19,876 nt of DNA from a virus (lineage: Duplodnaviria > Heunggongvirae > Uroviricota > Caudoviricetes): IMG/VR virus record IMGVR_UViG_2690316325_000023; one strand, written 5' to 3'. Shown here one piece after another: positions 18,995 to 19,876 of the stretch. The position numbers and the translations under genes were made by a program. A model generated the notes under the pieces. It searched no databases. It was given only the letters and a program-made list of their open reading frames with translations, and was not told the DNA's origin. Each line of letters begins with the position of its first letter. Position 1 is the first letter of the stretch.

Positions 18995-19087
18995 ACGGGA
19001 TTCTGAAATCCCGTTTTTGCCTGTTTTATGCGCGCTTCATATATCGCGGCGCGTTTTTTGCTCATTTACGGGATTTGTGAATCCCGT
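18995..19087. promoter_or_regulatory. Two copies of a 20-bp palindromic operator-like site (ACGGGATT-N4-AATCCCGT), 73 bp apart, upstream of parM
   Basis: Palindromes at about 18995-19014 and 19068-19087, each embedded in a ~37-bp direct repeat (tttacgggatt...aatcccgttt.tg.ctgtttt). The first is 35-55 bp upstream of the parM ATG; the second lies in the last codons of the upstream ORF. Confidence 0.45.
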
Positions 19088-19876
19088 TTCTGTCTGTTTT
19101 TTGTTTCCAATGGTCAGGCCACCCCGCAGCAGGTCTGCTTTGCGGCGGGCGCGTTCAGTGGTTTCACTGATTCTCTGTGCGTGCTCTGCGTCGCGGATGG
19201 CGCGCAGCATGTCAGAAAGCACGGTAACGGGTGTTTTCATGGTGTTCTGGTCTTGCTGAAGTGTGGATGCCAGGCGTGCGGCGGCTTCGGGGTCTGATGC
19301 CCCCAGCTGTTCCAGATAGCTGGCGACCGGGTTATAGCGGATCTCCGTGCTGCTTACGCCGTGGTTACGGCTCAGGCGCTGCCAGAGCTGCGTGATCCGG
19401 CTGTCCGGTCGGGTATCCGGTTTGCGTACAATTTCAAATCCCTGCGGTGCAATGATGCTGCCGTCAACGTACAGACTGCCGCCCCGTAACAGGTGCTGCA
19501 TCTGCTGTTCACCGATATGCAGGCCGAGAGATTCAGCAGACTCCCGCCATTCTTTAGCGAGTAATTCGTGGTTATCAGGCAAAGGCCGCTGCTGTTTGCG
19601 GCTCTGTGTCCAGCTCTGCATTTCATCACTGCTGTTTTTTGCCTGTTTGTCACGAAGCGAACGCATCAGCGCCCGGCGTTCGTGCCGTTTCAGTGAGCGC
19701 ATCCATTCGTTCACTTCAACGCCGTCAGGGAGCTGCGGCCACGGTGCTGGCCGTTCTTCCGGCTGTTCTGTCCCGTTGTTGTCCGTTTCCTGTACACGGG
19801 GACAGTTATTGCCACGAGTCCAAGGTGTCAACGACGGATGAAAAGTGATCCACTTATATCTCCACCAACGGCCCAA
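19037..19876 (-). CDS. Hypothetical protein, 5'-truncated by the window edge (at least 279 aa)
   Basis: Longest frame in this GC-rich segment, same orientation as parMR, running off the window end. Charged Arg/Gln/Glu-rich sequence; no family recognised. It could be the C-terminus of a replication or other right-arm phage protein, or part of the cargo. Confidence 0.45.
   Translation of the reverse strand: MGRWWRYKWITFHPSLTPWTRGNNCPRVQETDNNGTEQPEERPAPWPQLPDGVEVNEWMRSLKRHERRALMRSLRDKQAKNSSDEMQSWTQSRKQQRPLPDNHELLAKEWRESAESLGLHIGEQQMQHLLRGGSLYVDGSIIAPQGFEIVRKPDTRPDSRITQLWQRLSRNHGVSSTEIRYNPVASYLEQLGASDPEAAARLASTLQQDQNTMKTPVTVLSDMLRAIRDAEHAQRISETTERARRKADLLRGGLTIGNKKQTETGFTNPVNEQKTRRDI

Follow-up and report, generated by a model that had tools for sequence, protein, structure and literature searches.

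The stretch of DNA analysed here (the window, 19,876 nucleotides in all) ends on its right-hand side in an uninterrupted minus-strand frame of 279 sense codons closed by a TGA stop (19037-19876; stop at 19039-19037), which lies upstream of a pair of partition genes. The features on which the argument depends are as follows, from right to left.

19826-19876, minus strand: terminal 51 nt of IS100 (IS21 family), the istB-proximal inverted-repeat end, 100% identical to complete copies
19037-19825, minus strand: 3' remnant of the gpA replication-endonuclease gene, codons 679-940 of 940 plus the TGA, from the match to phage P88
19795-19825, minus strand: 3' 31 nt of the conserved island around the predicted origin (ori) nick site, CCTTGGACTCGTGGCAATAACTGTCCCCGTG, by homology to the P2 annotation
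19040-19126, minus strand: cargo-linked 29-codon tail of the gpA frame, RGGLTIGNKKQTETGFTNPVNEQKTRRDI; homology to gpA genes without parMR stops at 19127
19062-19103, minus strand: upstream 42-nt repeat with its palindrome at 19068-19087, a putative ParR (parC-like) site inside the gpA frame
18989-19030, minus strand: downstream 42-nt repeat; its palindrome, 18995-19014, ends 34 nt before the parM ATG
18001-18960, minus strand: parM, actin-like segregation ATPase (PF06406, E 7e-82; PF21523, E 6e-69)
17685-17996, minus strand: parR, plasmid stability protein (PF10784, E 1e-23; phrog_2515, E 2e-59)

The last two genes form a type II partition pair, an actin-like ParM and a small ParR in one operon, and ParM matches the structure of the R1 protein (PDB 1MWK) with an E value of 1e-92. 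The frame upstream shares their orientation, as an earlier sequence-only reading of this DNA had noted. That reading offered two identities for the frame, namely the C-terminal part of the phage replication initiator or a third component of the accessory cassette, and the comparison with phage P88 bears out the first. Residues 17-279 of the ORF align without gaps with residues 678-940 of P88 gpA (255 of 263 positions identical, 97%), such that codons 18-279 correspond to residues 679-940 of this 940-aa ‘replication endonuclease’, the name also given to the flanking gene in relatives. The ORF further matches the C-terminal ends of two PHROG profiles of 852-855 positions. One is phrog_6857, matched over positions 600-855 of 855 (E 2e-136); the other, with an E value of 4e-31, is phrog_91, described as ‘nicking at origin of replication’. 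A Pfam profile search of the window ORF returned neither PF05840 (Phage_GPA) nor any other family, because PF05840 is confined to residues 179-503 of the full-length relatives, where it matches with an E value of 1e-128; no NCBIfam model matched gpA, and sequence searches of the PDB gave no solved relative of gpA or of ParR.

The frame was a genuine coding frame. Over its core 233 codons, compared with three relatives, dN/dS is 0.13-0.21, indicating purifying selection, and third positions of the minus frame take 24 of the 36 substitutions. It is not the only long frame in the segment, as had been stated, since a 164-aa antisense ORF occupies 19347-19841 on the plus strand; neither this ORF nor a second antisense ORF (19028-19297, plus strand) had a PHROG match; the 164-aa ORF has no family match and is a shadow frame.

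The frame stays open as far as the right-hand edge of the window, and to that extent the description of it as running off the right-hand end holds. As a description of one gene it does not, since 19826-19876 is the end of IS100. Megablast homology to every P88-like phage ends at 19825, placing the junction between 19825 and 19826, that is, between gpA codons 678 and 679. The 51 nt beyond it are 100% identical to the end of the IS in phage GER2 and in Yersinia phage Tongde, and the same 51 nt adjoin IS21-type istB/istA gene pairs in unrelated phages. One complete copy (L003, 3004-4957) is 1954 bp long, has imperfect terminal inverted repeats and is flanked by a 5-bp duplication, ACAGG (2999-3003 and 4958-4962); complete copies encode IstA (matching NF033546) and IstB (matching NF038214), and identical plasmid copies are named ‘IS21-like element IS100 family’ by PGAP. 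The window holds only one end of this element and nothing of istB. The earlier suggestion was to extend the window to the right and to look there for the remainder of the protein and for rolling-circle initiator motifs. A sibling contig (L008, from GCA_001286005.1) carries the same chimeric gene and reaches 83 nt further, and it continues into the 3' end of istB, of which it covers the last ~22 codons, rather than into the rest of gpA. The istB TAA stop lies in the frame of the ORF, 15 nt upstream of a TTG.

The chimera called from this sequence thus consists of a TTG start and 15 further whole IS-derived codons, a 17th codon that straddles the junction, and then 262 gpA codons; because its first codons are IS-derived, ORF residues 1-28 match the start of phrog_31044. 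Seven contigs carry the exact 279-aa chimera, which NCBI lists under the name ‘phage replication protein [Escherichia coli]’; clustering at 90% identity places it among 16,881 members, mostly replication endonucleases of 940-946 aa. As a practical warning, this 279-aa database ‘protein’ is a chimera of IS and gpA. The last codon of the window (19874-19876) is the TTG used as a start by gene callers (compare L008, 66-86), which suggests that the limit of a called gene was used to cut the window, or the region it comes from.

The motifs required of a rolling-circle initiator lie on the other side of the break. In a codon-aware alignment of P88 and P2, the HUH motif (HHDGTxHWHMM) falls at P88 residues 431-441 and the active-site tyrosine motif (YIAxYIxKN) at residues 491-501, both upstream of the IS100 break (678/679) and outside the fragment in the window; in P2 gpA the active-site tyrosine pair is Y450 and Y454 (PMC3986222). 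As the HUH motif lies upstream of the break, what the window holds is a remnant of gpA and not a functional member of the family. We are confident that the ORF is part of a pseudogene and retains the final 262 codons of gene A from an E. coli prophage of the P88 type (Xuanwuvirus, Peduoviridae), the gene having been truncated by IS100. The remnant itself already carries an annotation in public records, the literature describes its context, and it is not a new cargo gene; what the present analysis adds is the truncation by IS100, the observation that this truncation falls at the predicted ori nick site and the position of the hotspot boundary inside the gpA frame.

Several searches were directed at the other side of the insertion. 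The junction of gpA and IS100 had no exact match in viral_contigs, genome_contigs or metagenome_contigs, and it was covered by no complete E. coli genome among the best matches listed (maximum coverage 82%). The predicted opposite junction, assuming a 5-bp duplication, had no match in the exact-match scan, and a search for the N-terminal partner, using the 80 aa before the junction and the predicted tail read through into the IS, returned only five frameshifted or partial fragments. As neither the second IS100 junction nor the 5' part of gpA was found, a simple insertion is indistinguishable here from an IS-bounded deletion or rearrangement.

The site of the break coincides with the predicted origin of replication. 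In the P2 record (NC_001895), the feature ‘nick site at ori’ is placed at 29892, which falls in codon 620 of gene A. The P2 sequence around the nick, GCCGCGCCTCGGAGTCCTGTCAATAACTGT, aligns to GCCGCCCCTTGGACTCGTGGCAATAACTGT in P88 (P2 codons 617-627 against P88 codons 677-687), and over these 11 codons nucleotide identity is 76% against an amino acid identity of 55%; along the P2/P88 alignment, the stretch is second in nucleotide conservation after the HUH motif. When a 300-nt P88 query centred on the junction was searched, 1360 records matched over at least 80% of its length, and ~1100 other E. coli records, which carry other P2-like gpA genes and include BL21, matched in the sampled listing mostly over query nt 133-181 only, at ~90% identity. 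This island of 46-50 nt (7377-7425 in P88, L004) is the only similarity to the gpA genes of the ~1100 other records that megablast detects. Conservation of this kind, at the level of nucleotides, is the signature of a putative cis-acting DNA element, and IS100 accordingly sits in the predicted ori of a P88-like prophage, an assignment made by homology to the P2 annotation. The island could also serve as a landmark for mapping the P2 hotspot.

The homologue in the window of the annotated P2 nick is position 19821, 5 nt from the IS100 junction. If the 5-bp duplication usual for IS100 occurred, the target would have been CCTTG (19821-19825), the last base of which is the homologue of P2 nick base 29892; the coincidence is striking but is based on one junction and one annotation. 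IstB of the IS21 family picks its targets by the deformability of the DNA and not by sequence (PMC11208146), a mode of targeting that leaves room for non-random insertion but does not support one. That the P2-family origin, as deformable DNA or as an intermediate nicked or bound by gpA, is a preferred target of IstB-guided IS21-family elements, so that a single transposition would destroy the cis-acting initiator together with its origin and recurrently ground P2-like prophages while their cargo is kept, appears to us very doubtful.

In an intact P88-like phage, the product of gene A is a rolling-circle initiator, an HUH nickase, that would nick the origin within its own coding sequence and so start rolling-circle replication. 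IS100 has entered between codons 678 and 679, inside the conserved nick-site island, separating the catalytic two-thirds of gpA from the fragment seen here and splitting the ori; a prophage copy with neither an intact initiator nor an intact origin would be unable to replicate. The called ORF begins at the TTG 15 nt after the in-frame istB stop, reads out of the IS100 inverted repeat into the gpA frame and, at the 3' end of that frame, runs ~29 codons into cargo-variable DNA, crossing the upstream repeat. The prophage copy probably lacks both initiator and origin and should be treated as defective. GpA is the P2 core gene most often pseudogenised in a recent survey (PMC13586616), and broken gpA genes in phage 520873 and in strain CFS3292 agree with this; the gene is split into three ORFs in the RefSeq record of phage 520873 (L001, 6517-9337) and is marked ‘frameshifted’ in CFS3292 (L016, 338-702).

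Upstream of parM lie two 42-nt direct repeats 73 nt apart, each with a perfect 8-4-8 palindrome, ACGGGATT-N4-AATCCCGT. Nowhere else in the window does the palindrome pattern recur, and two or more matches were found in none of 200 shuffles. The gpA-frame stop codon (19037-19039) falls between the two repeats, and the last 21 codons of the frame, with two bases of the 22nd, cross the upstream one. The upstream palindrome spans codons -16 to -10 of the ORF (TGFTNPV), so the earlier statement that a second palindromic operator lies in the last ~20 codons was correct as to position. Both repeats are kept in 12 loci, and 1287 of 5426 complete E. coli genomes have an unbroken junction running from the 3' end of gpA through the repeats to parM; by place, the parMR locus was chromosomal in 1531 cases and plasmid-borne in two.

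Relatives with other cargo locate the edge of this module. Two prophages (L005 and L006) carry the same type of gpA (95% identity over fragment residues 1-233, 233 aa) with other cargo and no parMR. Their homology to the window ends at 19127, after which their gpA ends in LLQDKGNSEKKK followed by a stop. Conversely, in another P2-like phage (L007) the parMR cassette follows a gpA of another type (768 aa) and a 151-aa ORF, and the homology of L007 to the window begins at 19102, at the edge of the upstream repeat. From the different tail of the first two and the start at 19102 in the third, it follows that the upstream repeat belongs to the parMR module. The same two types of tail recur among the members of the cluster, and four of the substitutions in the tail relative to P88 are non-synonymous, out of only five. 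These alignments put the hotspot boundary at about 19103-19126, within the gpA ORF rather than at its stop codon. On the question of where the cargo slot ends, which the earlier reading had tied to the identity of the ORF, the right edge is indeed the core gene gpA; the boundary does not lie at the end of that gene, the last 29 codons of which are cargo-linked. The C-terminal tail of gpA thus changes with the cargo, the recombination boundary lying within the reading frame. The interval between gpA and gpQ is the cargo hotspot of P2 described by Rousset et al. (PMC9122126), who found a putative partition system there in about a quarter of P2-like phages. The full-length protein is a conserved P2 core protein, P88 gpA being collinear with the fragment, an outcome for which the earlier reading had reduced the cargo to parMR and the small gene; the cargo is a putative parC, parM and parR together with small genes towards cos, and not a three-gene cassette.

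These comparisons leave scarcely any probability for the ORF being a third dedicated component of the parMR cassette, such as an adaptor or regulator. It is co-oriented with parM and directly upstream of it, its 3' end holds one parC-like repeat, and parMR was present in all 14 phage records with this C-terminal domain; the ORF is nevertheless collinear with the C-terminus of gpA proteins of 921-946 aa, P2 gpA aligns with P88 gpA through P88 residue 800, the same domain ends gpA in the prophages with an AAA ATPase and an S8 peptidase and without parMR (L005 and L006), and the cassette in L007 moved without the domain. The suggestion of a third component is thus not supported. It is just as improbable that an intact gene has simply been clipped by the window edge, with the rest of gpA immediately to the right: the frame is open to the last base, as this would require, but homology to every relative stops at 19825, the next 51 nt are the IS100 terminus, and L008 runs on into istB, whose TAA stop is in frame with the ORF. 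Very unlikely, too, is a chimera expressed by read-through from istAB and from the TTG start, the C-terminal gpA fragment of which would be partly active, for example as a dominant-negative against incoming P88-like phages or against ori. The open frame was accepted by gene callers, a GGTGG Shine–Dalgarno-like motif lies 6 nt upstream of the TTG (GGTGGA precedes it), and no minus-strand terminator-like site was reported between 19300 and parM by a scan that extended to 19300; on the other hand, the allele occurs on seven contigs only, and the C-terminal domain of gpA has no Pfam, NCBIfam or PDB match.

For the palindromes, the choice is between ParR sites and transcription terminators. They are most likely ParR-binding centromere or operator sites like parC of R1; we regard them as candidate sites on account of their position upstream of parM, their duplication, the 73-nt spacing and their co-mobility with parMR. 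In a consensus scan there was no sigma-70 promoter between or near the palindromes, and their layout departs from the direct iterons of R1 parC, so that the operator function we infer for them stays provisional. Both palindromes were also classed as terminator-like by the scan, as each has an 8-bp stem, a 4-nt loop and a folding energy of about -10 kcal/mol and is followed by a T-rich run on the plus strand only, and they might accordingly be plus-strand intrinsic terminators, antisense to gpA and parM, rather than sites for ParR. This is an unlikely reading, because no plus-strand gene or promoter needing termination was found upstream of the palindromes, the repeat reaches well past the hairpin, to 42 nt, the copies lie 73 nt apart, or ~7 helical turns, and the repeats move together with parMR. 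R1 parC, moreover, occupies the equivalent position upstream of parM, which also counts against terminators.

The closest known system is P88 itself, whose gpA (YP_009113059.1, 940 aa; Xuanwuvirus) is 97% identical over residues 678-940. It has the same neighbours as the window, with parM and parR downstream, the cos region and the portal gene gpQ, and the same palindrome-holding tail; the difference is that the window keeps only the last 262 codons of gpA, and IS100 replaces all that lies upstream of codon 679. IS100 itself (1954 bp, istA and istB) is represented by one end only, the 51 nt of which are identical to those of complete copies. The gene A protein of P2 (NP_046795.1, 761 aa, PF05840) is more distant, with 30% identity to the full-length P88 protein (E 3e-77), and the window fragment gave no single-sequence tblastn match to P2 at E<1e-5. 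The P88-type gpA is ~180 aa longer than P2 gpA at its C-terminus, and downstream of its gene A P2 has orf91, tin and old in place of parMR; P2 and P88 are alike in that the nick-site sequence annotated in P2 gene A is conserved at the homologous codons of P88 gpA. With the parMRC locus of plasmid R1 the window shares a similar ParM (E 1e-92), a ParR in PF10784 and repeated DNA directly upstream of parM. R1 parC consists of ten 11-bp direct iterons, unlike the two 20-bp palindromes in 42-nt repeats seen here. The parMR of the window is in addition prophage-borne, and the last codons of the preceding gene run through its upstream site, in contrast to the R1 plasmid locus.

Some further observations concern the cargo. 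In L005 (1-3277) and L006 (1-3265), an AAA family ATPase and an S8 family peptidase lie directly downstream of gpA, and these are probably a defence-type pair in the gpA–gpQ hotspot. In L007, 69 nt carried over with the cassette (3838-3906) are annotated by PGAP as a ‘DNA replication protein’ pseudogene remnant; they match the P88-type gpA frame over its last 23 codons and are a footprint of the previous neighbour of the cassette. The 151-aa ORF of L007 was considered as a homologue of the P88-specific C-terminal extension and was rejected on comparison. Between parR and cos in the window lies an 89-aa ORF (17030-17299, minus strand; phrog_3941, E 6e-49), the ‘small gene’ of the slot, which is annotated as hypothetical in phage 520873. 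Finally, 15 nt downstream of the parR stop, a 21-nt unit, CTCTATAAACGTGAGCATTTT, occurs as two perfect tandem copies (17629-17670) in an AT-rich stretch with a GC content of about 0.34.
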